Assembly: GCA_045605805.1 (NCBI GenBank)
Contig: JAZUQR010000026.1
Span: 11,316 to 75,315, forward strand
From: Alphaproteobacteria bacterium
GTDB taxonomy: Bacteria; Pseudomonadota; Alphaproteobacteria; CAAHEQ01; UBA3637
Direction of reading: 5' to 3'
Length of the DNA stretch: 64,000 bases
This document shows positions 28,184 through 46,096 of this stretch, piece by piece; the stretch's first letter is position 1, and the number at the start of each line of letters is the position of its first letter. A model generated the notes under the pieces. That model was not told the origin of the DNA, did no database searches, and was given only the letters and a program-made list of their open reading frames with translations. A program made the position numbers and the translations under genes.

Positions 28184-28354
28184 GGGTGACCAGTCAGATT
28201 TCAAAAGTGACCAGCCCCCGATTTTTGAAAATAGTATAAGTATTTGATATTACTGTATTTTTATGCGGCCAGTGACGAGACCGATTTTTTCTGTTTCGCT
28301 AAAAAAATGGCGCGGCTTGTGTCCCCGAATATGAATTATCACCAGGAAGGATCC
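28184..28354 (-). other. cos-like packaging-site sequence, copy A, with GTGACCAG repeats
   Basis: 60/69 ungapped identity to 46025-46093; minus strand GGATCCTTCCTGG...GGGGACACAAGC-CGCG. Confidence 0.55.
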
Positions 28355-28418
28355 GGTGGCATATTTCCCCCCTAAAAAGGATTGGCTCTCTATACCCAAA
28401 CGGCAGTTATGGCCATGT

Positions 28419-28751
28419 TCATATCTGTTGGATTTCAATCCCCAGCACGCCATATTTTTGTTGAGAATCAGGTGTATAAAATTCTTGTAAAACCGTAATC
28501 AATTCTTCTTTGGATGTAAAACCTGCCTGTTCCGGTGTGATAATTTGGCATAGTTTATCAAAACTTTCGGCCCTGTGCAGGTTTATGACCCGAGCAACAA
28601 AGGAATCATTTGTATCAGATAAATTAGAAAACACAATCTTATCCCCTATTTTTATTTGTTGCCTTTTTTCGTCAAACAACCTAAGCTCAACAACTTTTTT
28701 ACCTGATTTTAACAGATTGTAATACTTTGTTTGGACTTTCATATGATGCAT
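28419..28751 (-). CDS. ASCH domain protein
   Basis: YYNLLKSGKKVVELRLFDEKRQQIKIGDKIVF, YGVLGIEI. Confidence 0.9.
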   Translation of the reverse strand: MHHMKVQTKYYNLLKSGKKVVELRLFDEKRQQIKIGDKIVFSNLSDTNDSFVARVINLHRAESFDKLCQIITPEQAGFTSKEELITVLQEFYTPDSQQKYGVLGIEIQQI

Positions 28752-28823
28752 AATTTTTCTCCTTGAAAAGACTTATATTTTAAGATATACTATAAAAAAC
28801 AGTATGCATTAAAGGATACAAAT

Positions 28824-29348
28824 ATGCAAATAAAAACTTTTCATTCTTTTCACAAAGAGCATAAAAAGTTATACGAAGATATTTTAAGTTTAACTTATTC
28901 TGTCAATGATACTTACCCACAATATTCAACTTGGTTTAAAGAAAAGTTTTTACCAGACCTTAAAAATAAAAAAAGGATGTATATCGTTGCACAGGATGAA
29001 AGCGGAAAATTAGTTGGTTGTGTTTTGATTAAAAACACCGAAGAAGAAAAGAAAATTTGTACATTATTGGTTCATCCGGATTATCGCAAACAAGGTGTTG
29101 GTGAAAAACTGATGGAACAAACTTTATCAGAATTAGGTGAGCACCCTTTGATAACCGTTTCTGATAGAAATATAGCACAACTAACTCCTCTTTTAAGAAA
29201 AAAAGGTTTTCATTTATCGGCAGTTAAAAAAGGGGCTTATCGTCCAGAAGACACAGAGTATTATTTTAACGATAAAAAAGCAGATGCTATAAAAAACGGT
29301 CTTATTCCCGTTTTAATCAAAAGAATGAATAAATTACGTCAAAAATAA
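28824..29348 (+). CDS. GNAT acetyltransferase
   Basis: KICTLLVHPDYRKQGVGEKLM; divergent from ASCH gene. Confidence 0.88.
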   Translation: MQIKTFHSFHKEHKKLYEDILSLTYSVNDTYPQYSTWFKEKFLPDLKNKKRMYIVAQDESGKLVGCVLIKNTEEEKKICTLLVHPDYRKQGVGEKLMEQTLSELGEHPLITVSDRNIAQLTPLLRKKGFHLSAVKKGAYRPEDTEYYFNDKKADAIKNGLIPVLIKRMNKLRQK

Positions 29349-29376
29349 ATATTTTTCATCGCCTCATTTCAGGCAC

Positions 29377-29418
29377 GAAAAAAGCCCGTTTCAAACGGGC
29401 TGAATCTTAAATTGGTGG
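29377..29418 (-). repeat. 42-bp direct repeat (distal att): tRNA-Ala 3' CCACCA plus terminator hairpin
   Basis: gaaaaaagcccgtttcaaacgggctgaatcttaaattggtgg identical to 48686-48727. Confidence 0.93.
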
Positions 29419-29539
29419 TGTTACTTGATTTTTGAACGAAAAGGATGCATTTGTCCTTTGCTTTTGGGGCATTTTGCAAATGACTTGTATGCAAAAATAG
29501 TGTTGCTTATCGTCAAAAATGCACCTTTTCAAAATATAA

Positions 29540-29572
29540 GTTGATAAATCTGTAAATAAGAGCATGTATGGT
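29540..29572 (+). promoter_or_regulatory. Element-specific promoter-like motif, copy 1
   Basis: GTTGAT-N13-AGAGCATGTATGGT followed by GAAAGGAG RBS. Confidence 0.5.
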
Positions 29573-29598
29573 GATCTCCTCAATTGAAAGGAGAATAC

Positions 29599-29694
29599 AT
29601 GGAAAAACAACTTAAACTCTTGGCTCAAATCATCCTGCCAACGCTCTTAACCGTATTGAAAGATAATAAAAAAAATAAAAAACACCGATCTTAA
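29599..29694 (+). CDS. 31-aa peptide MEKQLKLLAQIILPTLLTVLKDNKKNKKHRS
   Basis: Strong GAAAGGAG RBS; below the ORF-track length cutoff. Confidence 0.45.
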   Translation: MEKQLKLLAQIILPTLLTVLKDNKKNKKHRS

Positions 29695-29711
29695 GCCAAA
29701 AAAGGATACCT

Positions 29712-30182
29712 CTACTTTTCGGTTTTTTTATAGAGAATAAAGTGAGGTAATTTATCCATATCTATATAATTAAACATTTTATAATTAGCTCGTCTGGCTT
29801 CAGGAGATAAGGTGTACTTTCTTAAATGATCCTTAGGGACGAAAGGATAGAACCAAATCTCATGATGTGAAACACCTTTTTCTTTCCATTTAAAATTGAG
29901 AATTAACAACGGAGGTAAAATCCCAGCTTTCAAAACTTTTTCCATAATGTCCCAACCGGCTCCACGAACAACGGATGAAGGTTTATGGTTAGCACTTTTA
30001 ATTTGGGCGCGAAAATTACAGCCAGTACATTGAATATCACACAGCGGATAATTGTTTGGTAAAAGCATTAACTTTTTACCGCCATTAGGACAACAGACCA
30101 AATCTACAACTTCTTGTTCCCCAAGCTTTCCATTTTCCTGGTTAATTGACATTTCTACCTCCATATCTGTTGTTATATACAT
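29712..30182 (-). CDS. DpnI-like (Dam-replacing family) catalytic-domain nuclease
   Basis: CCPNGG..LPNNYPLCDIQCTGCNFRAQIKS..GAGWDIM resembles the DpnI Zn/PD-(D/E)xK N-terminal domain; true start may be 30152. Confidence 0.7.
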   Translation of the reverse strand: MYITTDMEVEMSINQENGKLGEQEVVDLVCCPNGGKKLMLLPNNYPLCDIQCTGCNFRAQIKSANHKPSSVVRGAGWDIMEKVLKAGILPPLLILNFKWKEKGVSHHEIWFYPFVPKDHLRKYTLSPEARRANYKMFNYIDMDKLPHFILYKKTEK

Positions 30183-30238
30183 AATAACAGCTGAAAGTTT
30201 TAGAATTTACAATATTATTCAAAAATTTTTCTATTTCA

Positions 30239-30271
30239 CTGGACTTCTTCGTTTTTCCAAGCATTCATTGT
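30239..30271 (+). promoter_or_regulatory. Element-specific promoter-like motif, copy 2
   Basis: CTGGAC-N13-CAAGCATTCATTGT then GAAAGGAG RBS. Confidence 0.55.
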
Positions 30272-30293
30272 AATGTAACGAAAGGAGTTTATT

Positions 30294-30608
30294 ATGAATA
30301 CAGTTAAAGTTTATTTGGTGCGAAAACCTTTGGATTTTGAAGAAGTAAAAAACTTATGCAAAAAGTATGCGCATAAGGCCGAAGAGATCTTAATTGAAGA
30401 AACTGTCAACCTACCACCAACTTGGTATGAGGAGTTTTGCCAACGCCCATTGGATAACTACATTTTCTTATCCGGTAAAGGCGGTTATGATGATTTAGGC
30501 CACCGCAAAGTAGTTGCTATAAAATGCCTAGGCAAGCCAACGCTCTAGGTTGATCCTTCCGGCTCAAGCTATTGCCGATATATGGGAGTAGAAAATGAAA
30601 AATTATAA
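30294..30608 (+). pseudogene. Small phage-associated protein (DUF6329-like) with in-frame TAG at 30546
   Basis: Paralog of 45523-45831; after the TAG the frame continues VDPSGSSYCRYMG. Confidence 0.8.
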
Positions 30609-30831
30609 TGACATTCCTCCAAATTACAAAATCAGCATGCCGATGGTTTATAACCACGCAATTAGAGTACTTGATAGGCTGGATAGACGACTGAGCAGAC
30701 TTAACACCCCAGCGCTACCGATTAAATACAAATACGAAATCAATCGTCTAGAACATAAACTGGAACAAATGGTCGCTAAATACAAAGCCATTGAAAAGGA
30801 GTTGGAATATGTCCGAACCAAAATATCCTGA
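30595..30831 (+). CDS. Hypothetical small coiled-coil protein
   Basis: GGGAG RBS; overlaps both neighbours. Confidence 0.6.
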   Translation: MKNYNDIPPNYKISMPMVYNHAIRVLDRLDRRLSRLNTPALPIKYKYEINRLEHKLEQMVAKYKAIEKELEYVRTKIS

Positions 30832-31012
30832 GATAACTGTGCACCTGGCAGGTGAAAATGGGAATGCTTTTTATATTTTAGGCAAATGTCGTTCGGCGAT
30901 GAGGCGTGCTAACATCTCCAAAGAAGAACAAGATGAATTTTACCGCCAAGCCACCGCCAGCGACTATAATCACTTATTCATCACCTGTATGGAATGGTTT
31001 AATGTAGAATAG
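30809..31012 (+). CDS. Small phage-associated hypothetical protein (GxxGNAF motif)
   Basis: Paralog of 45315-45512; AAGGAG RBS. Confidence 0.8.
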   Translation: MSEPKYPEITVHLAGENGNAFYILGKCRSAMRRANISKEEQDEFYRQATASDYNHLFITCMEWFNVE

Positions 31013-31077
31013 GTCTATTTTTCTTGATTTTTTATGAATTAAAGGATATGCTGATTAAAAATCAGGAGGAAATAGCT

Positions 31078-32001
31078 ATGCAACCCAAATTTTTACATTC
31101 TTTTGTGACGCGTTCTCATAAAGGCGTTTATGGCATTATTCGGAAAAATAATCAGATTTTACTCATCCGTAAAGCACGTGGTCCCTATACAGGGCTTTAT
31201 GATTTGCCCGGTGGAAGTCCGGAAGCTGATGAAACACCTGAACAAACAGTGGCTCGTGAAATCAAAGAAGAAACAAATTGTGATTTAATTTCTTGCACCA
31301 ACCAACGTGAAAAAACAATTTTCTTTTCCAAATTTACCAAAGAAAGTGGAGAAGAAGGCTGTATGCAACACACGGGGATTTTGTTTGATGTTAAGGTGGC
31401 GGGTGAACCCACAACCCAAGGGGATGGATTAGATTCCAATGGAGCTGTTTGGGTAGATATCAATACTTTATCCAGTCAAAATGCAACACCTTTTGTTTTA
31501 ATGGGCTGTGGTAAGGAAGTTATCAATTTAGCCAATGAAGAGGATTACCCTGTGGATGTCGCTGTGCGTGGGGAACCTATCCCCGAAGGAAGGTGTCCCA
31601 TGATTGCAGGTCTCTTTTTGTTCAACTCTAAAGGCAATATTATTTTGCAGAAAGTGGCTTTATCAAAGAAAACAGATCCGGGGAAATGGAGTTATTCTGC
31701 TGCTGGGCATGTGGATGCTGGTGAAACTTATGAACAGGCTGCCTTACGTGAATTAAGCGAAGAAATGGGAATTAAGGCCTCCGGCATAACCTTTGTTGGA
31801 AAAGGCCATATATTAAAGAACGGCAATCCTCGTGCTTTTCATCATGTATTCAAGGTGATTTCTGATGATAAGATTACTTTTGAACCGACCGAGGTAGCCG
31901 AAGTTAAAGAATGGACTATTCCGGAATTAAAAGAGCAAATAGGGACTCACCCCGAACAATTCAAAGATATTTTTGCCCAAATTTTTATGGAGGTCTTTTA
32001 A
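31078..32001 (+). CDS. Tandem double NUDIX hydrolase
   Basis: GGSPEADETPEQTVAREIKEET and AGHVDAGETYEQAALRELSEEMG. Confidence 0.9.
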   Translation: MQPKFLHSFVTRSHKGVYGIIRKNNQILLIRKARGPYTGLYDLPGGSPEADETPEQTVAREIKEETNCDLISCTNQREKTIFFSKFTKESGEEGCMQHTGILFDVKVAGEPTTQGDGLDSNGAVWVDINTLSSQNATPFVLMGCGKEVINLANEEDYPVDVAVRGEPIPEGRCPMIAGLFLFNSKGNIILQKVALSKKTDPGKWSYSAAGHVDAGETYEQAALRELSEEMGIKASGITFVGKGHILKNGNPRAFHHVFKVISDDKITFEPTEVAEVKEWTIPELKEQIGTHPEQFKDIFAQIFMEVF

Positions 32002-32014
32002 TCAAGGAGGAAAC

Positions 32015-32449
32015 ATGTCAGGACCAGAAAGATTTAAAGTACCCGTTGGGATTTTTATAATGCTACGTCAAGACGATAAAGTTTTGTTGCAGCTGAGGCA
32101 AAATTGCTCGTTCAGTGGATATTGGGGATTCGTTGGTGGCCATTTGGATGGAAATGAACAGATCATCTCTGCCGCTATTCGTGAAGCAAAAGAGGAAGTC
32201 GGGGTGGATATTTTACCGGACGATTTGACCTTAAAGACCATTTGCCACAGTAATAAAGGCGAAGAGTACCTGCAATTTTATTTTGAATGTCGCAAGTGGT
32301 TAGGTGAAATTGAAAATAAGGAGCCCCACAAATGCGAACGCTTGGAATGGCATGAATGGAATAAGCTCCCTGAGCATACTTGTCCCTATTTGAAGGAAGC
32401 AGTAAGCAAAATCAATTCAGGAATTTCTTTTTACGAGGATACTTTTTAA
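32015..32449 (+). CDS. NUDIX hydrolase
   Basis: GGHLDGNEQIISAAIREAKEEVG; NKEPHKC. Confidence 0.9.
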   Translation: MSGPERFKVPVGIFIMLRQDDKVLLQLRQNCSFSGYWGFVGGHLDGNEQIISAAIREAKEEVGVDILPDDLTLKTICHSNKGEEYLQFYFECRKWLGEIENKEPHKCERLEWHEWNKLPEHTCPYLKEAVSKINSGISFYEDTF

Positions 32450-33039
32450 TGCTGAATAAACTTATTTACTTAACGACAAATCCTCATAAAGTTCAAGAAG
32501 CCAATGAATTTCTTATTAAGAAATATGGGTTTAATTTGGAAATCATGAAACCTTCTTTTGAAGTGCTGGAGATTCAAGCAAAAACTTGTGGCGAGGTTGC
32601 GAAATTTAGCGCTAAGTATGGGGCTGAAAAACTGGGAGTTCCGGTTTTGAAATCCGATTCAGGACTTTATATCGAAGCATTGGGCGGTTTGCCAGGACCT
32701 TATAATGCCTATTTTGACAAGCAAATAGGAACAGAAAAGTTTTTGGATATGATGAAAGATATCCCAAATAGGCATGCTAAATTGGAACATTGTTTTGCTT
32801 ATTGTGAGCCAGGACAAGAACCCATCTTGTTTACAGGGGGAAGTACGGGGCGTATTTCTTATGAAGCCAAAGGAGAGAAAGGGCGTTGGCATGACAAGTT
32901 TTATATCCCTGATGGGGAAGAAAAAACACTCAGCGAATTACGCGCCATCAACCATGAATATGAGGCACAATTTTGGGGACATGCCTTGGATGACTTTGCA
33001 AAATGGTACAAAGAAAAATTAGAAAAGGATAAAATTTAG
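32449..33039 (+). CDS. HAM1/ITPase-family non-canonical purine NTP pyrophosphatase
   Basis: TTNPHKVQE, EIQ, SDSGLYIEALGGLPGPY; canonical SHR motif replaced. Confidence 0.88.
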   Translation: MLNKLIYLTTNPHKVQEANEFLIKKYGFNLEIMKPSFEVLEIQAKTCGEVAKFSAKYGAEKLGVPVLKSDSGLYIEALGGLPGPYNAYFDKQIGTEKFLDMMKDIPNRHAKLEHCFAYCEPGQEPILFTGGSTGRISYEAKGEKGRWHDKFYIPDGEEKTLSELRAINHEYEAQFWGHALDDFAKWYKEKLEKDKI

Positions 33040-33053
33040 TGAAAGGATAACAA

Positions 33054-33635
33054 ATGCAATTACCAGAACAAATTGAATCAGAACGGATTATTTTAAAGCA
33101 CCCTATGAAACCGACCTTTAAATTGGCTGAGGAGCTTTACGCGATTGTGGATAAATCCAGAAATACTTTAAGCGAATGGCTCCCTTGGGTGGATAAAACG
33201 AACTCTGTAGAGGATGAATTTACTGGATATCTGGTGAGTCTGAATCAAAAACATTGGGATGAAGGAAATGGTTTCGGTTATCTTATTTATCAAAAGGAAA
33301 CAAATCAGATTTTAGGCGTTGTGGATTTATGCCATGTTGAGGAAAAACATCAATCCGCCGAAATCGGGTATTGGCTCTCTGATGACGCAACAGGTCATGG
33401 GTATATGCAAGAGGCTGTGCGTGCGTTGGAAAGCGAGGCCTTTCAAAATGGACTTAACCGGATTATCATCAGAAATGATACTTTGAATATACGCTCTGCC
33501 CATGTGGCTGAACGCTGTGGTTATATTTTGGAAGGTGTCATGCGTCAAGATTGTTGGGATGATTATCATCAGCATTTACGTAATACCAATATCTGGAGCA
33601 AACTCAAATCCGAATGGGAGAAAGAACAAAAATGA
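33054..33635 (+). CDS. RimJ/RimL-type GNAT acetyltransferase
   Basis: AEIGYWL...GHGYMQEAV, NIRSAHVAERCGYILEG. Confidence 0.9.
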   Translation: MQLPEQIESERIILKHPMKPTFKLAEELYAIVDKSRNTLSEWLPWVDKTNSVEDEFTGYLVSLNQKHWDEGNGFGYLIYQKETNQILGVVDLCHVEEKHQSAEIGYWLSDDATGHGYMQEAVRALESEAFQNGLNRIIIRNDTLNIRSAHVAERCGYILEGVMRQDCWDDYHQHLRNTNIWSKLKSEWEKEQK

Positions 33636-34843
33636 TTTCACTCAAATCAGCCCCTAGATGGTTATCTATTGCTTATGCCTTAACATCGGCATTGTTTTGC
33701 CTGCCGACATTAATGCTTTTTTATGGGTTTAAAGGTGTTGGTATGGGGGATTTTTTCTTGATTCAAGGGATATCAAATCTCACTGTATTTTTTATGGAAG
33801 TTCCAACCGGCTATATCGGTGATTTGTTTTCCAGAAAACACACTTTAATTATCGGGGTATTGTTTTGGATCTTGGGGCATGTTATTTGGATTTTGGGTTC
33901 AGGATTTTTCATTATTTTACTGGGGGAATTGTTATTTGCATTAGCGATTGCTTTCATTTCCGGCACGGCGGAAGCATATTTATACGATTTATTGAAAAAA
34001 CGACATAAAGAAAGTTTATTCCATAAAAAATATGCTAAAATGAAAATGTTGGATGGAATTGCTTTGATGGTGGCTACGCTGACCGGTGCTTTTATCTATC
34101 AATTTTTGGGGCCAACCATTCCGTTATACTTAACAATTTTCTGTTTAATGTTAAGTGTTGTTATTTTATGGCAATTACCGGATGTTCCCGAATCCAGACG
34201 TATTGTTGACAAAGATAAAAGCAAATGGCAGGATATTTTGGATATTTCCAAATATGCCGTTAAACATCCTGAAATAAAATGGCTGATGCTTTTACCGGCG
34301 GTGTATGGGACATTAACGCTTATTTTGATGTGGGGATTACAATCCGTTATGGTATTTCATCAATTACCTGTATTTGTTTTCAGTTTGATTTTAGGGATAA
34401 ACGCATTGATGAGAACTTTTTGGTCGGGCGTTTCCGGTCGGATATTGGAAAAAATAAACCTTTCCGGAACCATAAAATTGCAAAGTTTAATTATTATCAT
34501 TGCCTCTTTGGGGGCATGTATATCGGCCTATGTTCCGTTATGGGGTGTTTATATATGTTTGGGCTTGATGATTATCGGATCAGCCTCCAGTTCTTTATCC
34601 AGTATCACAACATCTGTTTTGGTCAATCATAGGATTCAATCCAATGAACGGGCGACAATTTTATCGGTTAAATCAATGCTGGCAAAGGCTTTTCATGGGG
34701 TGGGACTTATCTGCTTGAAACCCTTGTTTGACGGAATAGGTGTCGGACCAACTTTTATGGTATCTGCCCTGCTTTTAATCCCTATTCTGATTTGTGCAAG
34801 ACACCTGTATAAGATGAAGTTAAGGATAATGAAAGGGGACTGA
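33632..34843 (+). CDS. MFS transporter
   Basis: EVPTGYIGDLFSRK, SGTAEAYLYD, RATILS. Confidence 0.9.
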   Translation: MISLKSAPRWLSIAYALTSALFCLPTLMLFYGFKGVGMGDFFLIQGISNLTVFFMEVPTGYIGDLFSRKHTLIIGVLFWILGHVIWILGSGFFIILLGELLFALAIAFISGTAEAYLYDLLKKRHKESLFHKKYAKMKMLDGIALMVATLTGAFIYQFLGPTIPLYLTIFCLMLSVVILWQLPDVPESRRIVDKDKSKWQDILDISKYAVKHPEIKWLMLLPAVYGTLTLILMWGLQSVMVFHQLPVFVFSLILGINALMRTFWSGVSGRILEKINLSGTIKLQSLIIIIASLGACISAYVPLWGVYICLGLMIIGSASSSLSSITTSVLVNHRIQSNERATILSVKSMLAKAFHGVGLICLKPLFDGIGVGPTFMVSALLLIPILICARHLYKMKLRIMKGD

Positions 34844-34844
34844 T

Positions 34845-37225: not shown

Positions 37226-40200
37226 TAAGCAACCCTCACATTGTCTGTCCAAAGTTCACATTGAGTCATAACCGTTTCAACGGCATCCTCTACACCTTCT
37301 GGGGGATACTTATGCTTTTTCAATAACTTTTTAATAAGCATACGCATCTTTGCACGAGCATTCTCACGCCTTTGCCAGTCAATTGTTTTATTTTTACGCA
37401 GTGTTTCTGTTAGTTCTTTTGTAATGGCAACTAATTCGTCATTTTCATAAAAATCCTTAACTGCTTGAGGCTTTGTTAATGCATCATAAAAGGCAACTTC
37501 TTCTGGTGTTAATCCTAAATCTGCCCCTTCCTTTTGGGCCTCCGAAATTTGTTTTGCCAGGCTGAGTAACTCTTCTATTACCTGCTCGTTGGTAAGCATA
37601 CCATTTAGGTAGCGGTTCATAATTGCCTGAATTATTTCACTAAACTTTTCAGAACGCACAACGTTTGTTTTACGGTAAATAGAAATTTGTTCTGCAATTA
37701 ATTTTTTCAAAAGTTCAAGGGCTAAATTCTTTTGTTTCATTTTTGAAATTTCTTCCAAAAACTTCGGATCAAACAAAGAAAATTCTTTCTTTACATCAGA
37801 AAATAAATTAATAACGCCATCGCTTTTTATACTTTGTTTCAGCAACTCATTAATACGTTCATTCATTTCCTTCAAAGAAATCTTTTTGCCTTCTCCTGCA
37901 TTAGTTAAGCGTAAGGTCAAAACACGAACGGCTTCCATAAAAGCGGCTTCTATGCGTTTTTCTTCCTTAACAATAGAAGAACACAAAGATAAGGATTGAT
38001 GTAGCATCAAGGCATGCTTCAGGAATTGTTCTTTTTTCTTATCTGTTCCAATAATAAAGTTTACTGCCCCACTAATAAGCTCAGCACGCTTTAAATTACT
38101 ACCCGTCATAAATTGTTGATAATCAAATCCATGCAATAAATCACGACAAACACTTAATTTTTCTTCAAATTCTTTAAGTGCTGTTTCAGCGATATTCATA
38201 TTTCCATAGTTCTTTTTATCACGAACTGTGTAATCGTTCATCGCTTGTTTCAGCGCATTTGCAATTCCGACATAATCTACAACAAGTCCACCTTCTTTAT
38301 CCTCAAATACACGATTAACGCGAGCTATTGCCTGCATTAAATTATGTCCCATCATTGGTTTATAAACATACATCGTTGCCAAAGAAGGTACATCAAATCC
38401 GGTCAACCACATATCCACCACAATGGCAATTTTTAGAGGATCTTTGTTATCCTTAAATTTACGGGCCAACGCTTCTTTATGAGATTTATTTCCAATGATT
38501 TGACGCCAATCTTCTGGGTCATCATTACTAGAAGTCATCACAACCCCCACTTTTTCTTTCCAATTGGGACGTAATTTTAAGATTTCTTCATAAATTTTCA
38601 AAGCAATAGGACGTGAATAAGCAACAATCATCGCCTTTCCAGTAAGCAAGTTTTCCCGATAATTTTCATAGTGGTCTATAATATCGTTTACCAAGGAATG
38701 AATAGTGTTATCATTCCCCAGAATTGCTTCCATTTGCCCAAGTTTCTTTTTACTTGCTTCAATGACTTCAGGATCTGCATTTTGGGCCATTAAATCATAT
38801 TCATCATCAATTTTCTTGAGTGTTTCTTTATCCAGATTCAACTTAACCACTCGACTTTCATAGTAAACGGGGCGAGTTGCTCCATCTTCCACAGCCTGTG
38901 TCATATCATAGATATCAATATAATTTCCAAACACTTCTTGCGTATTTCTGTCTTTTTTGGAAATAGGTGTCCCCGTAAACCCGATAAATGTTGCATTTGG
39001 AAGACTATTGCGGATAACACGAGCAGTCCCTGTTTTAATTTTCCCGTCTTTGGTTATTTTTTCCGCCAAACCATATTGCCCCCGATGAGCTTCATCTGCC
39101 ATCACAATAATATTCCGGCGAGTGGACAATGGCTCTTCGGATTCTTCAAACTTCTGCATCGTTGTAAAGAAAATCCCATTGGCCTTGATACCATTTAATA
39201 ACTTTTTCAAATGTTCCCGACTAGTTGCTTGAACGGGTTCTTGTCTTAAAAAGTCTTTACATTTGGCAAATTGTCCATAGAGTTGATCGTCCAAATCATT
39301 GCGGTCTGTTAGTACCACAATTGTCGGACTGTTTAAAGCACTTTGTAGCAGGTGGGCATAAAACACCATAGATAAAGATTTACCAGAACCTTGTGTATGC
39401 CAAAACACACCACCTTTACCATCTGTTTCTGTTGCTTTTTGAGTTGAAGTAATGGCTTTTTTCACCGCGAAGTATTGGTGATATCCGGCCAAGATCTTTT
39501 TGCTTCCTTTATTTTCATTGGAAAAGCAAATAAAGTTCTTCAAAATATCCAAGAGTCTCTCTTTTGGAAAGATGCCTTTAAAAAAAGTATCAAACTGTGC
39601 GTGTTGGGTATTTTCATATTTTCCATCCACAGTTTTCCATTCCATAAAGCGTGTTTCATCAGAAGTAATCGTTCCCGCCTTGGATGTCAATAAATCGCTT
39701 GTGACGCAAATAGCGTTATAGATAAACATAGAGGGGATTTCATGTTTATAGTTTTGGATTTGGCGATATGCCTCGGAGGCATCTGTTTCTTCACGGGAAG
39801 GAGATTTCAACTCCATCAAAACCAAAGGCAATCCGTTCACAAATAACAAAATATCCGGACGTTTTTCGCTGTTTTCAATAAAGGTCCATTGGTTAGCTAC
39901 AATAAAAGAGTTTTTATCAGGTCTATTATAATCAATCAAATAAACAATGGTATCTTTGGGTTCTCCCTTTTCTGTATAGCGAACCGTAATACCACTTTGC
40001 AAATACTCCATAAACACAGCATTCTTTTGTGTTAGTTCTGCGTTCTCAAAGTTCTTTAATTTTGTTAAGGCCTCTTTAATCGCCACTTCGGGAAGTTTAG
40101 GATTCAAGCGGCACAAAGCATCAATCAACTCATCTTCGTATAAGGGAGAATGAAAATCCCGACTTTCTAAATCAGGCCCATAGACATACCGATACCCCAT

Positions 40201-40272
40201 CCCCTCAAACAACTCTATTACAGAGTTTTCATAAGCTTCTTCATTTACAGGATTGATAAAAGTATCGGTCAT
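37225..40272 (-). CDS. hsdR: Type I restriction endonuclease subunit R
   Basis: RPDILLFVNGLPLVLMELK, HTQGSGKS, DEAH, FTGTP, MWLTGFD. Confidence 0.97.
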   Translation of the reverse strand: MTDTFINPVNEEAYENSVIELFEGMGYRYVYGPDLESRDFHSPLYEDELIDALCRLNPKLPEVAIKEALTKLKNFENAELTQKNAVFMEYLQSGITVRYTEKGEPKDTIVYLIDYNRPDKNSFIVANQWTFIENSEKRPDILLFVNGLPLVLMELKSPSREETDASEAYRQIQNYKHEIPSMFIYNAICVTSDLLTSKAGTITSDETRFMEWKTVDGKYENTQHAQFDTFFKGIFPKERLLDILKNFICFSNENKGSKKILAGYHQYFAVKKAITSTQKATETDGKGGVFWHTQGSGKSLSMVFYAHLLQSALNSPTIVVLTDRNDLDDQLYGQFAKCKDFLRQEPVQATSREHLKKLLNGIKANGIFFTTMQKFEESEEPLSTRRNIIVMADEAHRGQYGLAEKITKDGKIKTGTARVIRNSLPNATFIGFTGTPISKKDRNTQEVFGNYIDIYDMTQAVEDGATRPVYYESRVVKLNLDKETLKKIDDEYDLMAQNADPEVIEASKKKLGQMEAILGNDNTIHSLVNDIIDHYENYRENLLTGKAMIVAYSRPIALKIYEEILKLRPNWKEKVGVVMTSSNDDPEDWRQIIGNKSHKEALARKFKDNKDPLKIAIVVDMWLTGFDVPSLATMYVYKPMMGHNLMQAIARVNRVFEDKEGGLVVDYVGIANALKQAMNDYTVRDKKNYGNMNIAETALKEFEEKLSVCRDLLHGFDYQQFMTGSNLKRAELISGAVNFIIGTDKKKEQFLKHALMLHQSLSLCSSIVKEEKRIEAAFMEAVRVLTLRLTNAGEGKKISLKEMNERINELLKQSIKSDGVINLFSDVKKEFSLFDPKFLEEISKMKQKNLALELLKKLIAEQISIYRKTNVVRSEKFSEIIQAIMNRYLNGMLTNEQVIEELLSLAKQISEAQKEGADLGLTPEEVAFYDALTKPQAVKDFYENDELVAITKELTETLRKNKTIDWQRRENARAKMRMLIKKLLKKHKYPPEGVEDAVETVMTQCELWTDNVRVA

Positions 40273-41123
40273 TTTTTCTCCTTTAATCCTTTAAGAAATT
40301 CAGCCATTTTGTTTTTCCGTTCTTTATTATCTTTAGCCAAAACGCAGAATAAAAGCAATTGATAAATTTCATCATACCACTTTTCTAATTCTTCATTGGT
40401 CAGATTTGTTACTAGATTATTTTTCTTTTTACCTGCCTTGTTATTATGACGAATATCTAAATTATTAAGCATATTCTTTGCAGTTTTGAAATAATCAGTG
40501 AATCCGTCAATAGGATTATCTAAAATAGGTTCATATTCCTGAGCAATTCGACGTAAAATATCTTTTTTTTCTGCTAATTGTCCCTTTAATGATGCATGAT
40601 GGTATTTTAAAATTGCCATTGCTGTATCTGTAGAGGAAATTTCTGCTACAGCTGTTGCAGCAGGATTTTTAGGAATTAAAATAACTTTTTCTTCTTCAGT
40701 AAATATCTTCTTTTCATGGTGAATATGTTCTAAAAGCAAATCTATATTACTCAAAAGCATAGGATATTCATTATAATACTGAAAATTAATATTTTGACGA
40801 CCAACTCCTCGCTTCTGTATCAATAAATTTATAAGATTAAGATAATACTCTAAAATTGTTACCATTTCATCAGTGGTATCCACATGTTCTGAAATGAATA
40901 TTTTGTGTCTCATTTCATCACAGTTTAAGCAACTTCCTCTTTGCTTCCAATTTACAAAAGCATAACTATCTACCATTTGTTCAATAGTTCCCTGTGTTTG
41001 TTGAAAATTTAAAGGATTTGTATACACCAACATTGCGGTATTAAATAATTTAACAATTTTTCGAAATTCTTTTTGAAAATCATACTTGCTTGCTAAAATT
41101 TCAAAGATATTTTTACGAGTCAT
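40269..41123 (-). CDS. Hypothetical protein inserted in type I R-M operon
   Basis: Low GC; ATGA-coupled; DIRHNN motif. Confidence 0.75.
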   Translation of the reverse strand: MTRKNIFEILASKYDFQKEFRKIVKLFNTAMLVYTNPLNFQQTQGTIEQMVDSYAFVNWKQRGSCLNCDEMRHKIFISEHVDTTDEMVTILEYYLNLINLLIQKRGVGRQNINFQYYNEYPMLLSNIDLLLEHIHHEKKIFTEEEKVILIPKNPAATAVAEISSTDTAMAILKYHHASLKGQLAEKKDILRRIAQEYEPILDNPIDGFTDYFKTAKNMLNNLDIRHNNKAGKKKNNLVTNLTNEELEKWYDEIYQLLLFCVLAKDNKERKNKMAEFLKGLKEKK

Positions 41124-41599
41124 GGGGCATCCTTTTTATTTTCCAGTGGCTTATTAAAACAATCGATATTCTTTTTTAGTTCTACTGTTAAATCGTTGGT
41201 TACAGCATATATTTTATAATCTTTTATATTGGCAATATCTTTATTAGTATTATCATCTATTTTGGGAATAAAAACAGTATTATAGGGAGATATCACAAGG
41301 GGACTCCCTAACGCGGTCCAAAAACCACTTTGCGTATTATTATCTTCTACATATATACGGTAAATAACTTCCGTTTTATTTTTATGATTAACAATGCAAA
41401 AGTTTGTTATATTTGCCTTTTGAGTCTTGTGATCATACATTGCTGTCGGCAAAACAATAGATAAATCGTGCCCCGTTCTTTCTTGTTTATCATCTTTTGC
41501 TATCTTTGCCATGGTCTTGGTAAGGAAAAATATGGCAATTGTCAAAATTAACATTGATGTTGATAAAACTATGTTCCAATCTATATAAACCATATTCAA
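41120..41599 (-). CDS. Hypothetical membrane-anchored protein inserted in R-M operon
   Basis: N-terminal TM; ATGA-coupled on both sides. Confidence 0.7.
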   Translation of the reverse strand: MNMVYIDWNIVLSTSMLILTIAIFFLTKTMAKIAKDDKQERTGHDLSIVLPTAMYDHKTQKANITNFCIVNHKNKTEVIYRIYVEDNNTQSGFWTALGSPLVISPYNTVFIPKIDDNTNKDIANIKDYKIYAVTNDLTVELKKNIDCFNKPLENKKDAP

Positions 41600-42807
41600 A
41601 CCTCCACATTATCGACATTGATTTTGCCGGACATGAGTTTGGGTAATAAAGTGTCTCGAAGTGCAGACAACTGGATATTTTCTCTTTGGTTTGCTTTAAT
41701 TTGTGCAAACATTGGAGAAATCACAGAATGGAAATCTTTCAATTCAGATTCTTCTGGCATAACAAAAGGCATTGATTTAATAATTTTTGAATTAACGGCA
41801 GTTGCAATGGATGACGTGCTCCCCATTGTTTGAAAATTAAAGTTTTTCAAATAATAATACAAATATTCGTTTATTTCTTTTTTATCTGTTCCAAAATGAG
41901 CAATGGCTTCGTTTGTTGCCATTTCTCCATCTGTAATTGCAATTCTTCCAACAGTCAGTTTAAAGCTCAATAGAACAGTATTATCTGGTACAATTTTAAC
42001 ATTAAATTTGGAAATTGACTCTGGAACTAAATATTCAGAACTATCAGAAATATACAGCCCACAATTTCCCATATCGGATATAGATATCCATTTAATATCA
42101 TTAGTGTTTTTTGAAAACCATTCAGGCTCTTTTCGGGGAGGAGTTTTCCCGATTGTAATATTAAAAAATTCTTCAGCTTTTATCGTTTTTCTGTTTGGAT
42201 TTATTTTATCTATGAACCAAGATTTAAAGAGGGCTTGGGCTTGGAGTTCGAGGTTTTGATTGATTTTGTTGTTCAGCTCTATCTTATCATCCAGAGCCCC
42301 CAACACCCCCGCAATCTTCCTCTGCACCTCCACTGGCGGTATATTTACAGGGATGGAATACAAATGTCCAACCTTTATGCTAGGTTGTACAGAACTTATA
42401 TTCAATGCTTGTATATAACTTTGTATATTGGGTTGAGATAAACAATAATACATGAATGTAGAGTCAATGTCCTCTTTATACTGCATGGCAATGATGTTTT
42501 GCGCTATACACCCCTTATCTTGCGGCATTAAAGCAACTTTTCCAATGTTTCCAACAGTTGTTATTAAAACATCTTTTGGGTTGGGATGTCCACTTCGAAA
42601 CCAATTCTGATACGTTTCAATATTAACAAATTTTGATGCAGAAGCCAAATCTGGGTATCTATCTCCAGCTTTTAATAAGTTGCTTTCAAGTAGAGGAATG
42701 ATACCTTCCGTATCCAAGGGTGCATTCTTTCCCCGGTTATCAATTGTATTTTTAACCAAATCCCCTAATTTAATCTCTCGCCAACCTGACATTATATTAT
42801 TTGCCAT
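41596..42807 (-). CDS. hsdS: Type I R-M specificity subunit (two TRDs)
   Basis: WREIKLGD, PPVEVQRKIAGVLGALDDKIELNNKIN, LRDTLLPKLMSG. Confidence 0.95.
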   Translation of the reverse strand: MANNIMSGWREIKLGDLVKNTIDNRGKNAPLDTEGIIPLLESNLLKAGDRYPDLASASKFVNIETYQNWFRSGHPNPKDVLITTVGNIGKVALMPQDKGCIAQNIIAMQYKEDIDSTFMYYCLSQPNIQSYIQALNISSVQPSIKVGHLYSIPVNIPPVEVQRKIAGVLGALDDKIELNNKINQNLELQAQALFKSWFIDKINPNRKTIKAEEFFNITIGKTPPRKEPEWFSKNTNDIKWISISDMGNCGLYISDSSEYLVPESISKFNVKIVPDNTVLLSFKLTVGRIAITDGEMATNEAIAHFGTDKKEINEYLYYYLKNFNFQTMGSTSSIATAVNSKIIKSMPFVMPEESELKDFHSVISPMFAQIKANQRENIQLSALRDTLLPKLMSGKINVDNVEV

Positions 42808-42817
42808 CAAATATTCC

Positions 42818-43702
42818 CTATTTTTTAATAAGTTCATATAGCAAAGGAAAGTTACTTTTTTGGTAAGAATCCAAGTATTGGCTTGGAATGTCCTTTAATG
42901 TTTCATTATTAAATTCATAGATATCAACAATTTCCCTTGAAACAATTTTTTCTTCACCATTTTTCTGTAATTTATTATATCTTACCAAGGCTAAAATAGT
43001 ATCATTTTGATTGCTACGACGCAATGGATGCTTTCCTAATAAAAACTCCTCTCTAAACTTCTGGTCTTTTATTGATGCAATTAATGTTGTATTATTTTCT
43101 AAATCTTTAAAATTCCAATTTCCCTCTGTTTCCGTATTAATTGGTTTGTATATAACTAGTTTCTGGATTTTATATACGGGATCTAAATTTCTTATGATAT
43201 CCCCTTCCACATATTTGAGAAAATCTTTTCTTTTAATTGGAAAGGTATGTTCATTAGAAAAACCAACCCCATTAATATGGTTATTTAGCCAACACCTTTT
43301 ATAAAAGTTTGATTTTGCATTAAGTGCAGCATCCAAATTTATCGATGCAGGAATTTCGATATGTTCTTGCAACATGAAGCCAGAAAACATTTCAGAAATA
43401 TATTGTCCGGCGTTTTCCCCCAATTCATTTAGGCTCTTCCCTGTTAATCCTTTAATAAAACCAGGCACAAATTCATTAAACAAAAATGATCCCAAAAACA
43501 AACAAATTGTAAATTTTCCTTTAAAAGAACCTTCTTCTGTTGCATTTAAATATATTTGATAATCCGTGTCCTTAAAACAGGTTTTTGTAATATTTTTATA
43601 TATCAATTCAATTTGCTGTGATAAAAAAATAAAATCAGATAATTCCAACGCATGTGTTGGGGTATCTAAATGTAATATAAATTCACTCTTTTGTTCAGTC
43701 AT
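42818..43702 (-). CDS. Hypothetical protein between hsdM and hsdS
   Basis: Low GC; ATEEGSF motif; coupled to hsdM. Confidence 0.75.
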   Translation of the reverse strand: MTEQKSEFILHLDTPTHALELSDFIFLSQQIELIYKNITKTCFKDTDYQIYLNATEEGSFKGKFTICLFLGSFLFNEFVPGFIKGLTGKSLNELGENAGQYISEMFSGFMLQEHIEIPASINLDAALNAKSNFYKRCWLNNHINGVGFSNEHTFPIKRKDFLKYVEGDIIRNLDPVYKIQKLVIYKPINTETEGNWNFKDLENNTTLIASIKDQKFREEFLLGKHPLRRSNQNDTILALVRYNKLQKNGEEKIVSREIVDIYEFNNETLKDIPSQYLDSYQKSNFPLLYELIKK

Positions 43703-45210
43703 TCAACCTCCCATCCAATTTGTTTCAATTTTGTTTTGATTTCTTCTTGAAGTGTAGAGGATTGTTTGAACATCTCGGAAAGTTCAGCCGTCAAACGTTT
43801 CATTTTGTCTTCAAACGGTTCGCCATCATCGGCTTGTTCCTCTATCCCCACATAACGACCTGGCGTCAAGATGTAATCTTGCTTGGCAATATCCTCAGTT
43901 GTTGCAACAGCACAGAAACCTTTCACATTTTCCAATGTGCCATTTTGGAATGCGGTAAATGTATCGGCCAATTTCTTGATGTCTTTATCTGTGAAGTCAC
44001 GGTGTTTTCTGTCCACCATATATCCCATCTTGCGTGCATCAATGAAAACTGTGCGGCCTTTTTGTTGCTTATTCTTGGTAATAAACCACAATGTGACCGG
44101 AATTGTGACGCTATAGAACAATTGTGTTGGCAGAGCAATAATACCTTCCACTAAGTCAGCCTCAATAATCCGCCGGCGAATATCGCCTTCACCACTATTG
44201 GTAGAGGAAAGGGCTCCGTTCGCCAAGACTAAACCGATTTTACCCCCTGGTGCCAAATGATGTATCATATGCTGAATCCACGCATAGTTAGCATTACCTG
44301 CCGGAGGTGTTCCAAATTCCCATCGAGGATCGTCTTTTAATTTGTCTTGTCCCCAGTTGGATAGGTTAAATGGAGGATTCGCCATAATGAAGTCAAACTT
44401 TTCGTGTTGGTGCAGGTCGTTAAAGAATGTATCGGCCTGATACGGTCCCAAATTGGCATCTATCCCACGAATAGCCATATTCATTTTTGCCATTTTCCAA
44501 GTATCTGCGTTGGATTCTTGACCATATACAGAGATTCTGTCACGATTGCCACTGTGGGCTTGCAAGAACTTAACCGATTGCACAAACATGCCACCCGAAC
44601 CACAGCATGGGTCATAAACGCGGCAGTTGTCAAAGGGTTTCAAAACTTCTACAATTGTGCGGACAATGCTGGATGGAGTGTAAAATTCACCGCCTTTTGT
44701 TCCTTCATACGCGGCAAACTGAGCAATGCAGTATTCATAAGTTCTGCCCAACAGGTCTTTGTCCTTATCCGTTTCGGACATATCTATGTTGTTTGTAAAC
44801 AAATCCACAACATTGCCCAAAACTCGTTTATCCAAATCTTGGTTAGCATAGTTCTTTGGAAGAACGTTTTTCAGGGATTTATTTTCAGCCTCAATAGCAC
44901 GCATGGCTTCATCAATCACCATACCGATTTCGGGAGTATGGGCGGCTTCGGCTATTTTGCTCCAACGAGCTGCCTCAGGAACATAGAAAATGCCTTCCAT
45001 TATATAAGCATCTTTATCGTTTTCAAAACCATCCCCTTCTGCGACCAATTGGTTATAACGCTTTTCAAATGCAAAAGAAATGTAGCGCAGGAAAATTAAA
45101 CCCACAATGACTTTGCGGTAATCCGCCGCAGGAATATGTCCCCACAGTTCGCATGCGGCTTCCCAGATTTGCTTTTCAAAACCTATATTTGCGTTGTTTT
45201 TCCCTGCCAT
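43699..45210 (-). CDS. hsdM: Type I R-M N6-adenine methyltransferase
   Basis: GEFYTP, YDPCCGSGGM, ANPPF. Confidence 0.97.
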   Translation of the reverse strand: MAGKNNANIGFEKQIWEAACELWGHIPAADYRKVIVGLIFLRYISFAFEKRYNQLVAEGDGFENDKDAYIMEGIFYVPEAARWSKIAEAAHTPEIGMVIDEAMRAIEAENKSLKNVLPKNYANQDLDKRVLGNVVDLFTNNIDMSETDKDKDLLGRTYEYCIAQFAAYEGTKGGEFYTPSSIVRTIVEVLKPFDNCRVYDPCCGSGGMFVQSVKFLQAHSGNRDRISVYGQESNADTWKMAKMNMAIRGIDANLGPYQADTFFNDLHQHEKFDFIMANPPFNLSNWGQDKLKDDPRWEFGTPPAGNANYAWIQHMIHHLAPGGKIGLVLANGALSSTNSGEGDIRRRIIEADLVEGIIALPTQLFYSVTIPVTLWFITKNKQQKGRTVFIDARKMGYMVDRKHRDFTDKDIKKLADTFTAFQNGTLENVKGFCAVATTEDIAKQDYILTPGRYVGIEEQADDGEPFEDKMKRLTAELSEMFKQSSTLQEEIKTKLKQIGWEVE

Positions 45211-45314
45211 TTTGGACCTCTTTTCGTTTAGAATCATAATATCGTAAATTCTAGCCGATTTTTTCTGAAAAGGCAATCAGAAATATAAGGTCTGTTGTAT
45301 TTAATTATGGTGCT

Positions 45315-45512
45315 TTACTCTACCTCAAACCATTTCATGCAGGTGGCAAGCAAGTGGTCGTAATTGCCGGAGGTGGCTTCTGCCTGAAAGGCATCTTGTT
45401 CTTTTTGATTCAAACCGGCTTGACGCATGGCTCTTAAACAGATACCTAGGATATTAAAGGCATTCCCGTCTTTACCGGTCAACTGGACAATAATATCAGG
45501 ATATTTTGGCAT
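45315..45512 (-). CDS. Small phage-associated hypothetical protein (GKDGNAF motif)
   Basis: Paralog of 30809-31012; AAGGAG RBS. Confidence 0.8.
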   Translation of the reverse strand: MPKYPDIIVQLTGKDGNAFNILGICLRAMRQAGLNQKEQDAFQAEATSGNYDHLLATCMKWFEVE

Positions 45513-45522
45513 GACGATCTCC

Positions 45523-45831
45523 TTATTTAACCTCAAGCCCCAAGTAGCGGCAGTAGCTTGATCCTGACGGGTCGGCGTAAAGTGTCGGCTGACCGTCACA
45601 TTCCAGGGCGATAACCTGACGTTGGTTGTCGTCGTTATATCCGCCTTTGCCGGATAAAAAGATGTAGTTATCCAGAGGGCGTTGGCAGACAGCCTGATAC
45701 CAAGCAGGCGATAAATGAACTGTTTCGGCTATCACCACTTCTTTGGCTTGGTGTGCATATTTTTGGGTTAAATCCCGAACTTCGGAAATATCGGAGGGCT
45801 TGCGGACCATGTAAGTTTTAACTGTTTTCAT
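45523..45831 (-). CDS. Small phage-associated protein (DUF6329-like), intact copy
   Basis: RKP..., LDNYIFLSGKGG, DPSGSSYCRYLG. Confidence 0.8.
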   Translation of the reverse strand: MKTVKTYMVRKPSDISEVRDLTQKYAHQAKEVVIAETVHLSPAWYQAVCQRPLDNYIFLSGKGGYNDDNQRQVIALECDGQPTLYADPSGSSYCRYLGLEVK

Positions 45832-45850
45832 GATAATCTCCTTTCGCATC

Positions 45851-45883
45851 ACAATGAACGCTCTTTTTCGAAGAATTATCCAG
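45851..45883 (-). promoter_or_regulatory. Element-specific promoter-like motif, copy 3
   Basis: CTGGAT-N13-AGAGCGTTCATTGT then GAAAGGAG RBS. Confidence 0.55.
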
Positions 45884-45926
45884 TTATTTCTGTACTAAAT
45901 CGCAAGAAATATGCATTATTTTGAGG

Positions 45927-46096
45927 GGGTGACCAGCCAGAAGTGACCAGTGACCAGCCAGGAAAAATTGGGTCCCCTTATAACCCTTGTGTTTATTGGG
46001 GTTTGAGATATACCCGACCAGCCAGAATTTTTCGGTTTCGCTAGAAATATGGCGCGGCTTGCGTCCCCGCATATGAAATCTCGCCAGGAAGGACCT
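45927..46096 (-). other. cos-like packaging-site sequence, copy B, with GTGACCAG repeats
   Basis: Minus strand AGGTCCTTCCTGG...GGGGACGCAAGC-CGCG...GAAAAATTCTGG; GTGACCAG at 45929, 45943, 45950. Confidence 0.6.

Follow-up and report, generated by a model that had tools for sequence, protein, structure and literature searches.

The window analyzed here, a stretch of 64,000 nucleotides from contig JAZUQR010000026.1 of an alphaproteobacterial assembly (GCA_045605805.1), contains two similar non-coding blocks, one inside and one just outside a genomic island at a tRNA-Ala gene. Both repeats are very probably cos (cohesive-end) sites of a phage family of gut Alphaproteobacteria that has lambda-type terminases. 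The island looks like a decayed member of an undescribed family of cos-only satellites, with the second site a fossil and a packaging unit between the two sites unlikely. The joint reading, in which both blocks are cos sites, the right-hand block (copy 2) belongs to a satellite-type element and the left-hand block (copy 1) is the eroded remnant of an older insertion, is assigned a probability of roughly 0.7.

The repeated module and its two gene contexts

Comparison of the blocks at 28283-28351 and 46025-46093 confirmed what the initial annotation had described, namely 60 of 69 identical positions, gap-free and in the same orientation, at a distance of ~17.7 kb. The ungapped repeat was found to reach 78 nucleotides (28274-28351 versus 46016-46093; 85% identity, same orientation, 17,742 nucleotides apart), and a third copy with the same anatomy is present on another contig, C8, of the same 1.21-Mb genome (G000:C8:21613-21764). 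The window contains six copies of the motif GTGACCAG, where 0.76 would be expected and none of 100 shuffles reaches that count, and five of the six copies (28186, 28207, 45929, 45943, and 45950) lie directly left of the two blocks. On the minus strand, for which the quoted reading of copy 2 was correct, the repeats come after each block, as had been claimed.

The names of lambda sub-sites (cosQ, cosN, and cosB with R3, I1, R2, and R1) are partly used below in their customary sense. They otherwise follow PMC6092414. Each copy of the module consists of two or three GTGACCAGCC units, a spacer of ~55 nucleotides, a single further GACCAGCC unit, and a block of ~70 nucleotides, with similarity ending sharply past GGAAGGACC(C); the whole module measures ~170 nucleotides. 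Among 37 near-invariant positions, three are changed in copy 1 (affecting the cosQ-like block, the immediate neighborhood of the predicted cut, and the proximal repeat), one in copy 2, and none in the C8 copy. A few family copies have lost the whole cosQ side, from ~2 nucleotides before the predicted cut, probably through a single old event.

Of 36 other genomes belonging to the same family, 14, representing 8 genera, contained the module, and it was found in none of a sample of 24 genomes that covered other families of the class. A 16-base core pattern retrieved 25 loci from IMG/VR and at least 119 loci from genome contigs; a profile built from 38 copies recognized 52 of the 119 genome-contig loci listed, the others being chance pattern matches. 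Among the matches listed, the true genome-contig sites are from metagenome-assembled genomes (MAGs) of uncultured Alphaproteobacteria, several of rumen or colon origin and a few labelled Azospirillum or Rhodospirillales, which we take to belong to the reduced-genome gut order RF32. These 52 loci include 26 of full phages, 15 beside a DnaD-like replication gene, 3 similar to the latter, and 8 with an ambiguous context. Of the 25 IMG/VR loci, 23 have a fixed full-phage gene order, 1 is an element of the second kind (type C below), and 1 is a chance match.

Two gene orders, read here on the minus strand of the window, surround the module. Type A is a full prophage, in which a large serine recombinase, a DUF2924 protein, a sigma-factor-like protein (phrog_1740, 6.6e-06), DUF6291, DUF6362, and MetK are encoded upstream of the module. 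A ParB_N-methylase fusion, F2, DUF6891, F19, and F0 follow it, and after these come the small terminase subunit TerS (phrog_57, 2e-19), the large subunit TerL (GpA_ATPase, 9e-95; GpA_nuclease, 6e-88), gpW (6e-11), and a portal of the lambda family (1e-112). The module is co-oriented with and upstream of TerS and TerL, which were present wherever the left flank extended far enough, and its distance from TerS in full phages ranges from 0.2 kb (L195; 196 nucleotides) to ~6 kb. The refuting condition named in the initial annotation, homologs without neighboring terminase genes, was thus contradicted in full prophages, in favor of cos. In type C, the module is preceded by a serine recombinase, DUF2924, an HTH_17 protein, a 257-aa DnaD-like loader/initiator (F13, which when intact matches the DnaD-like helicase loader phrog_2514 at 2e-13), and sometimes a nitroreductase, and is followed usually by F2 and F0 and then by type I restriction-modification genes and other cargo. 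One such element, in G004, has the site without F2 and F0. Neither TerL nor TerS was found in any type C locus (15 genome-contig loci among the matches listed).

Two observations concern the neighborhood of the site. In type A loci such as L032 and L042, the MetK gene ends directly ahead of cos and, on the same strand, the ParB-methylase fusion begins directly behind it; joining of the ends would make the two genes neighbors, and they look like a self-methylation/anti-restriction pair at the genome ends. A 52.5-kb viral contig (IMGVR_UViG_3300042816_000265; L053 and L061) has modules of both types in opposite orientation, type C toward one of its ends and type A toward the other, and therefore an island and a full phage side by side.

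Alignment with defined phage ends and co-variation with TerS

Given that the module occurs in phages with lambda-type terminases, which need a cos site, it was read as cos. Among the closest cultured relatives by TerL (47% identity) are the Rhodobacter capsulatus phages of the RcC cluster (RcKemmy, RcDormio, RcHotPocket, RcBaka, and RcOceanus). According to PMC8601537, the ends of these phages are defined and carry 11-base 5′ overhangs, as judged from sequencing reactions that break off at one base. Of the five RcC records, four start with (G/C)GGGGCGGAAG, followed by CGCG, CTAGCG, a T run, three GTTTCCAC repeats, and a ParB-like gene, and base 1 of these four records aligns with the GGGG of the module core. 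The records of RcKemmy and RcDormio end with GGTTCTTCC, 12 nucleotides, and TATGCG, and that of RcOceanus begins at gene 1, with the uncut site inside. In the same order and register, the module reads GGGTCCTTCC, 13 nucleotides, TATGC, GGGGnnnCAAG, CCGCG, CTAGCG, an A or T run, and the repeats. The family profile aligns in register through the uncut RcOceanus site, its best match outside the family. The cosQ-like element GGGTCCTTCC is near-invariant in 38 copies, and the distance from it to the predicted cut is 27 nucleotides, compared with 27 in RcC phages and 29 in lambda; in copy 2, the aligned counterparts of this block are GGTTCTTCC in the RcC phages and GGTCCTTTCC in lambda, located 27-29 nucleotides before the record start.

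Synteny extends the likeness to the RcC phages. The order cos, ParB-like gene, small genes, TerS, TerL, and gpW is common to RcC and type A, and the family TerS and ParB domain are 33% (E 2e-30) and 53% (E 2e-39) identical to their RcC counterparts, respectively. Both groups have a gpA-type TerL, a homologous TerS, and a ParB-like first gene, and the RcC cos likewise contains a GGTYCTTCC block 27 nucleotides before the end, TATGC, GGGGnCGnAAG, CGCG, CTAGCG, a homopolymer run, and direct repeats. By contrast, the RcC repeats are three closely spaced GTTTCCAC units, whereas those of the present family (GTGACCAGCC) are arranged as one plus two or three around a 55-nucleotide spacer. The hosts also differ (Rhodobacter at 64% GC versus gut MAGs at ~40% GC), a methylase fusion of the ParB gene is seen in the present family, and the ends, which are predicted here, were measured in the RcC phages (PMC8601537).

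The lambda ends have the same block order as the module, with a GGGTCCTT(T)CC block 27-29 nucleotides before a G-rich end of 11-12 nucleotides that is followed by CGCG. The lambda cos also resembles the module in its sequence of proximal site, spacer, and distal sites, after which comes the terminase side, and the lambda terminase belongs to the same Pfam families. Of 76 unique copies, 22 match the IHF consensus exactly at one position and strand of the spacer (0.5 expected in shuffled sequence), which may point to a bending-protein site between the proximal and distal repeats; the remaining copies, including copy 2, have a palindrome at the IHF-like position instead. Unlike in lambda, up to 6 kb of genes stand between cos and TerS, similarity outside the blocks is weak, and the repeats are direct and unrelated to the lambda R sites. 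The proposal of a lambda-like cos in the initial annotation was therefore upheld in element order, with a closer fit to the RcC ends and with repeats that co-vary with a TerS helix, as described below.

We infer that the site is cut, that TerS binds it, and that transfer depends on a helper. The cut is predicted ~18 nucleotides past the cosQ-like block GGGTCCTTCC and would leave an 11-12-nucleotide 5′ cohesive end, GGGGnnnCAAG(C), ahead of CGCG. Beyond this would lie a short A/T run, one proximal repeat, the spacer of ~55 nucleotides, and two or three GGCTGGTCAC repeats; the repeats would constitute cosB and be bound by the small terminase subunit of the phage, with packaging proceeding from the cut toward the repeats, which is leftward in the window.

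The repeats vary between phages and are uniform within a site, being GTGACCAGCC, GTGACCACCC, or GTGACAACC and, at one locus, GTGACCAACC. To relate this variation to the proteins encoded nearby, 16 flanking protein families were screened for alignment columns that separate the CCAG from the CCAC repeat class, the families other than TerS serving as a control for shared ancestry. TerS had two such columns and 14 families had none; the portal also had two, with only two CCAC-class sequences in its alignment. In the CCAG class, positions 19 and 23 of TerS are Asn and Thr (13 sequences in a first set and four of four in a second); with CCAC repeats, they are Ser and either Asn or Lys (seven sequences and five of five, including a TerS only 39% identical to the reference); and with CAAC repeats, they are Ala and Lys (two sequences from one phage). 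The two residues thus follow the repeat class in 31 of 31 sequences. Within the first 50 residues, the TerS proteins of L032 and L042 differ at positions 19 and 23 plus two conservative changes only. An AlphaFold model of TerS had an overall predicted local distance difference test (pLDDT) score of 64, with 79-84 for the N-terminal 50 residues, and places residues 19 and 23 in the predicted second helix (residues 18-27, pLDDT ~84) of an N-terminal helix-turn-helix. Comparison of TerS with Protein Data Bank sequences yielded nothing below E 0.8, and a Foldseek search with the model (predicted template modeling score of 0.32) yielded no match at E ≤ 0.001, the sole local match being to the winged helix of a phage excisionase over 50 residues (probability 0.98, E 0.5). 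Judged by co-variation only, the repeats appear to behave as small-terminase (cosB) sites.

Several observations weigh against the joint reading. The match of the family profile to RcOceanus scored 8.1 bits, with E 1.4 over 2.4 Mb (nhmmer; genome, Rhodobacter phage, and lambda stretches), and is thus not significant by sequence alone; local alignment of the module with lambda is also weak (score 18-26), and the case for cos rests on register, element order, and synteny. A blastn search with copy 2 against 50,697 phage records returned no match. The IMG/VR contigs that end near the site do so 3, 15, and 39 nucleotides past the cosQ-like block and 189 nucleotides upstream, with no common end. 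The C8 cos region is partly represented in 20 Logan contig rows, and in three of four runs the site is spanned by one contig; the remaining run (X5) covers the region in pieces only. Most full phages have 1.4-6 kb of genes between the site and TerS, unlike lambda, and transcription of the downstream operon may also start from a promoter in this region. Because the phages in the comparison are related, the counts in the co-variation test are not counts of independent events. For the satellite part of the reading, the element in the window is broken, and we infer helper dependence, excision, and packaging of type C elements from their sequences.

Variation within the site was also seen in other respects. 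At L032:11662-11674, single-sample contigs of runs X1 and X5 diverge from C8 past the core and the proximal repeat and continue into other spacer and repeat variants, of the CCAC class in X5; phages that are alike in cosQ and cosN and unlike in cosB therefore co-occur in one sample. The palindromic spacer of copy 2 (45960-46013) is present in inverted form, as its reverse complement, in phages L024 and L018.

The island, related elements, and alternative explanations

The 65-nucleotide stretch at 29354-29418 matches, with 98-100% identity, the tRNA-abutting sequence at the integrase end of the G003, G004, and G023 elements, and its last 42 nucleotides recur with 100% identity at 48686-48727, beside the tRNA-Ala 3′ end. 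In G022 and G023, the element terminates at the homolog of window positions 29367-29687. Taken together, the border repeats and these ends define the island as ~29.4-48.7 kb (~19.3 kb), compared with ~16.2 kb for the G022 element and ~21.2 kb for that of G023. A reading of the 65-nucleotide repeat as a partial copy of the tRNA was rejected, only its last 6 nucleotides being tRNA. As initially annotated, Pfam scans of 30 open reading frames between 25.9 and 49.9 kb revealed no terminase or capsid gene, and the integrase and replication genes are broken: the recombinase has 216 instead of 568 aa and the replication protein is split into frames of 79 and 148 aa, as against 257-265 aa in relatives (265 aa in G007). 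Both genes are intact in the G003, G004, and G023 elements. In comparison with G003, ~4 kb has been lost at the integrase end of the window island, which is probably immobile.

Copy 1 had been placed within the island but lies ~1 kb to the left of these borders, between an acyl-ACP thioesterase gene and ASCH/GNAT genes. In a genome of the same genus (G001), a solitary copy is located 390 nucleotides from tRNA-Ala and beside the same thioesterase gene. On the simplest reading, two insertions succeeded each other at this tRNA and copy 1 is what erosion has left of the first; with tandem insertion at one tRNA, the 17.7-kb spacing is a by-product. The initial annotation had proposed that the DNA between the sites could be a cos-to-cos packaging unit. 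This proposal was rejected as the likely reading: copy 1 is outside the element, probably older, and decayed, and packaging leftward from copy 2 would reach it after 17.7 kb, which is ~52% of the 34-kb genome of a helper-type prophage. Underfilled lambda heads are not cut efficiently, and an interval of this size therefore makes such a unit very unlikely.

By sequence, type C elements look like cos-only satellites. The family is recurrent in several genera, with elements of 16-21 kb and intact copies in G003, G004, and G023 (genomes that are 75, 91, and 98% complete, respectively), and a full scan of the whole G023 element revealed no structural genes. The G023 cargo comprises type I restriction-modification genes, a Dam-type methylase beside a PD-Lambda-5_A-like protein, and an AriA/PtuA/GajA-like ATPase. 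Intact relatives without structural genes, which had been sought, thus exist in several genera; for the minimal satellite of serine recombinase, replication gene, cos, and cargo that had been proposed, they are favorable, whereas the window copy itself is broken and not proven to be one. In the 15 type C loci among the matches listed, identity to the reference is 29-100% for F13 and 38-100% for the integrase, and this wide range combined with a constant layout indicates an old and diverse lineage. No gpA terminase was found genome-wide in G003, G004, G022, G023, or G036, all of which have the site. Element DNA is 95.5% identical between G000 and G033 over 2.2 kb and between G000 and G023 over 0.75 kb, as compared with 71% for a chromosomal gene of G023.

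A candidate helper is present in the genome of the window. Its type A prophage (~34 kb; C8, ~15,000-49,000) is colinear with the G032 prophage, is about twice the size of the island, and is apparently intact (L032 and L074), with a 569-aa integrase, a 169-aa TerS, and an open TerL frame of 652 aa. This prophage combines CCAG-class repeats with the Asn,Thr form of TerS, matching copy 2, and by sequence would be a candidate helper for CCAG-class islands. In the proposed cycle, type C elements would excise and replicate and would then be cut at their own cos and packaged by the terminase of a helper, which would carry repeats that match the cos of the element. A second, more distant gpA-type terminase was also noted in G000 (G000:C28:16095-16823; E 2.6e-45, open frame of 567 aa). 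It is tentatively proposed, at a little under even odds, that gut and rumen Alphaproteobacteria with genomes of ~1-1.5 Mb harbor undescribed cos-only satellites of 16-21 kb that would recruit a lambda-type terminase by way of TerS sites like those of the helper and would move defence and nucleotide-sanitizing cargo between genera, some with a tandem cos of two classes.

According to PMC6092414 and PMC6739421, the known cos satellites (P4, phage-inducible chromosomal islands (PICIs) of the SaPIbov5 type, and EcCICFT073) use a cos of the helper terminase and have no virion genes, and some carry two cos sites. As described there, they resemble type C elements in being integrated, in encoding an integrase and their own replication, in having a fraction of the helper's size, and in carrying accessory or defence cargo. 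In contrast to P4 and the PICIs, the type C integrase is a large serine recombinase paired with DUF2924 and the replication protein is DnaD-like. EcCICFT073 has a different cosB that is read through Rpp (PMC6739421), whereas the putative cosB repeats here equal those of the candidate helper. Type C elements further differ in that their hosts are uncultured gut Alphaproteobacteria. No gene for capsid-size control or packaging interference was recognized in the type C scans. Pfam, PHROG, and PADLOC scans likewise found none of the P4/PICI hallmarks (tyrosine integrase, AlpA/Stl-type control, primase-replicase, Sid/Psu/Delta, Cpm/Ppi/Rpp, or a satellite TerS) and gave instead a serine recombinase, DUF2924, HTH_17, and a DnaD-like loader, so the elements would form a new satellite family. 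No description of these phages or islands was found in the literature searched.

Tandem cos modules ~190 nucleotides apart were observed at type C or unassigned loci (L117, L158, L160, L159, and L008, the last being G033:C28), with the arrangement of L158 repeated in L014 (G008:C15), and at none of the full-phage loci. In these loci, the upstream module has CCAC-class and the downstream module CCAG-class repeats; in L159 and L008, the upstream module is without its cosQ side and begins ~2 nucleotides before the predicted cut. An island with a tandem cos of two classes may be able to use helpers of two TerS specificities.

Several other explanations of the module were weighed. It might control transcription, serving the ParB-methylase/F2 operon as a promoter that the sigma-like protein would perhaps recognize, while a regulator common to phages and islands would use the repeats as operators. 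The last repeat is indeed ~12-90 nucleotides upstream of the first gene of a co-directional operon, type A phages do encode a sigma-factor-like protein, and F2 and F0 accompany the site in both element types. However, no column that tracks the repeat class was found in the sigma-like protein, F2, F0, F19, or ParB-methylase, whereas TerS has such columns; moreover, the G004 element retains the site without F2 and F0, and the core aligns with physical RcC ends. We consider this explanation quite unlikely, and a promoter role is in any case compatible with cos. A role of the repeats as replication-origin iterons, to which a Rep protein encoded just upstream would bind, is highly improbable. Although in type C direct repeats flank an AT-rich spacer directly downstream of the DnaD-like rep gene, in a layout that resembles the rep-ori of known satellites, identical repeats follow different upstream genes (F9/F8/F7/F23/MetK in type A and F13 in type C), and this occurrence in phages and islands with different replication genes makes an origin unlikely. 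In addition, no column of F7, F23, or the integrase tracks the repeat class, and the L195 site is directly upstream of TerS. Readings of the block as a structured non-coding RNA or as an origin of conjugative transfer are scarcely credible. The module is conserved and non-coding, with hairpins in some copies, and in the genome of the window it is always 3′ of a convergent gene, but Rfam gave no match at the gathering score, which within the window was reached by two tRNAs only, and nothing meaningful over either copy at E up to 10 (best E 1.3). The variable parts, judged by eye, have no consistent pairing, and no relaxase or mobilization gene was present among the open reading frames scanned. 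An integron attC site, a miniature inverted-repeat transposable element, and a 3′-untranslated region element were also rejected, given the lack of matching inverted ends and the phage-borne contexts.

A different alternative accepts the cos sites as true and explains the islands as prophages stripped of their structural genes, leaving prophage debris in the window. The broken integrase and replication genes of the window island, copy 1 as a lone remnant, the similarly degraded G022 element, and the possession of F2, F0, and cos in common with full phages are all as such decay would have it. It does not account for F13, which is absent from 23 and 26 full-phage loci (the latter among the matches listed) except for one weak match of 23% in L187, nor for 15 diverse type C loci (among the matches listed) with a constant layout, for intact copies in genomes without a gpA terminase, for the 95.5% identity between genera, or for a tandem cos of two classes that is restricted to type C or unassigned contexts. 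Plain decay is possible for the window copy but fits the type C family poorly, and as a general explanation it is unlikely.

If the joint reading and its extension to type C elements are true, widespread uncultured phages of gut Alphaproteobacteria would gain a packaging signal, a predicted cohesive end, and a recognition code made up of two TerS residues. The TerS helix-repeat pairing (Asn,Thr with CCAG; Ser,Asn/Lys with CCAC; Ala,Lys with CAAC) would be a compact hypothesis for the bench. The satellite family would be one that Pfam, PHROG, and PADLOC scans link to no P4/PICI hallmark, and with no such gene it would probably be missed by marker-based satellite finders. Its transfer would explain restriction-modification and defence cargo that is 95% identical between genera with chromosomes ~70% identical, and the two tandem cos modules would offer an answer to the question of why some satellites have two cos sites. 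The window itself would hold something more modest, namely one decayed satellite, one fossil cos, and a tRNA-Ala insertion hot spot.

Features of the window and cargo of the island

Table 1. Positions of the cos-like modules, island borders, and genes discussed in the text
Feature	Position	Strand	Remarks
cos copy 2, whole	45927..46095	-	cosQ-like block, cosN-like core, cosB-like repeats; 102.5 bits against the family profile
cosQ-like block, copy 2	46087..46095	-	GGTCCTTCC; near-invariant in 38 family copies
Predicted cohesive-end segment, copy 2	46058..46068	-	GGGGACGCAAG, then CCGCG; aligned with the first 11 bases of four of five RcC phage records
Proximal repeat, copy 2 (R3-like)	46014..46023	-	plus strand reads CCGACCAGCC
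Spacer, copy 2	45960..46013		imperfect palindrome; stem variants in relatives
Distal repeats, copy 2 (R2/R1-like putative TerS sites)	45929..45959	-	three GTGACCAG(CC) units
cos copy 1, decayed solitary remnant outside the island	28184..28354	-	repeats 28186-28195 and 28207-28216
Sub-parts of copy 1	28272-28281; 28316-28326; 28345-28354	-	degenerate proximal repeat; core; cosQ-like block
IHF-consensus-like site, copy 1 spacer	28237..28249	-	putative
Left border repeat of island	29354..29418	+	42-nucleotide recurrence at 48686-48727
tRNA-Ala(CGC), right border and integration site	48722..48797	-	
Large serine recombinase fragment, 216 aa	47770..48420	-	clusters with 568-aa proteins (Resolvase, Recombinase, Zn_ribbon_recom)
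Broken replication gene, frames of 148 and 79 aa	46744..47508	-	79-aa part clusters with the 257-aa F13
Nitroreductase-family gene between rep and cos	46149..46664	-	same position in G007, G008, and G033
F2, cos-proximal, common to full phages and islands	45523..45852	-	no Pfam, PHROG, PADLOC, or Atlas match
F0, second cos-proximal gene, common to full phages and islands	45315..45599	-	no family match
Type I restriction-modification genes	37225..45276	-	hsdR 37225-40272, hsdS 41596-42837, hsdM 43699-45276, and three further open reading frames
Further cargo	29712..36514		DpnI-like methyl-directed nuclease, inverted F2/F0 fragments (30294-31012), three NUDIX, Ham1, two GNAT, MFS, kinase-ASCH, ASCH

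The cargo also includes a low-molecular-weight phosphatase and the nitroreductase, and its ASCH proteins number three when the kinase fusion is counted. Diverged copies of F2 and F0 are present in the window in inverted orientation (30294-31012 on the plus strand and 45315-45852 on the minus strand), with ~71-75% nucleotide identity. The inverted copies are located at the left end of the island and are followed by plus-strand cargo, which suggests that the DNA was rearranged or that two elements merged.

Nucleotide "house-cleaning" and ASCH genes are unusually concentrated at 28419-36514, where three NUDIX, Ham1, three ASCH, and two GNAT genes were counted. The kinase-ASCH fusion has a weak match to pVip-kinase. 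Parts of this set recur in the islands of G023 (L070) and G003 (L069).

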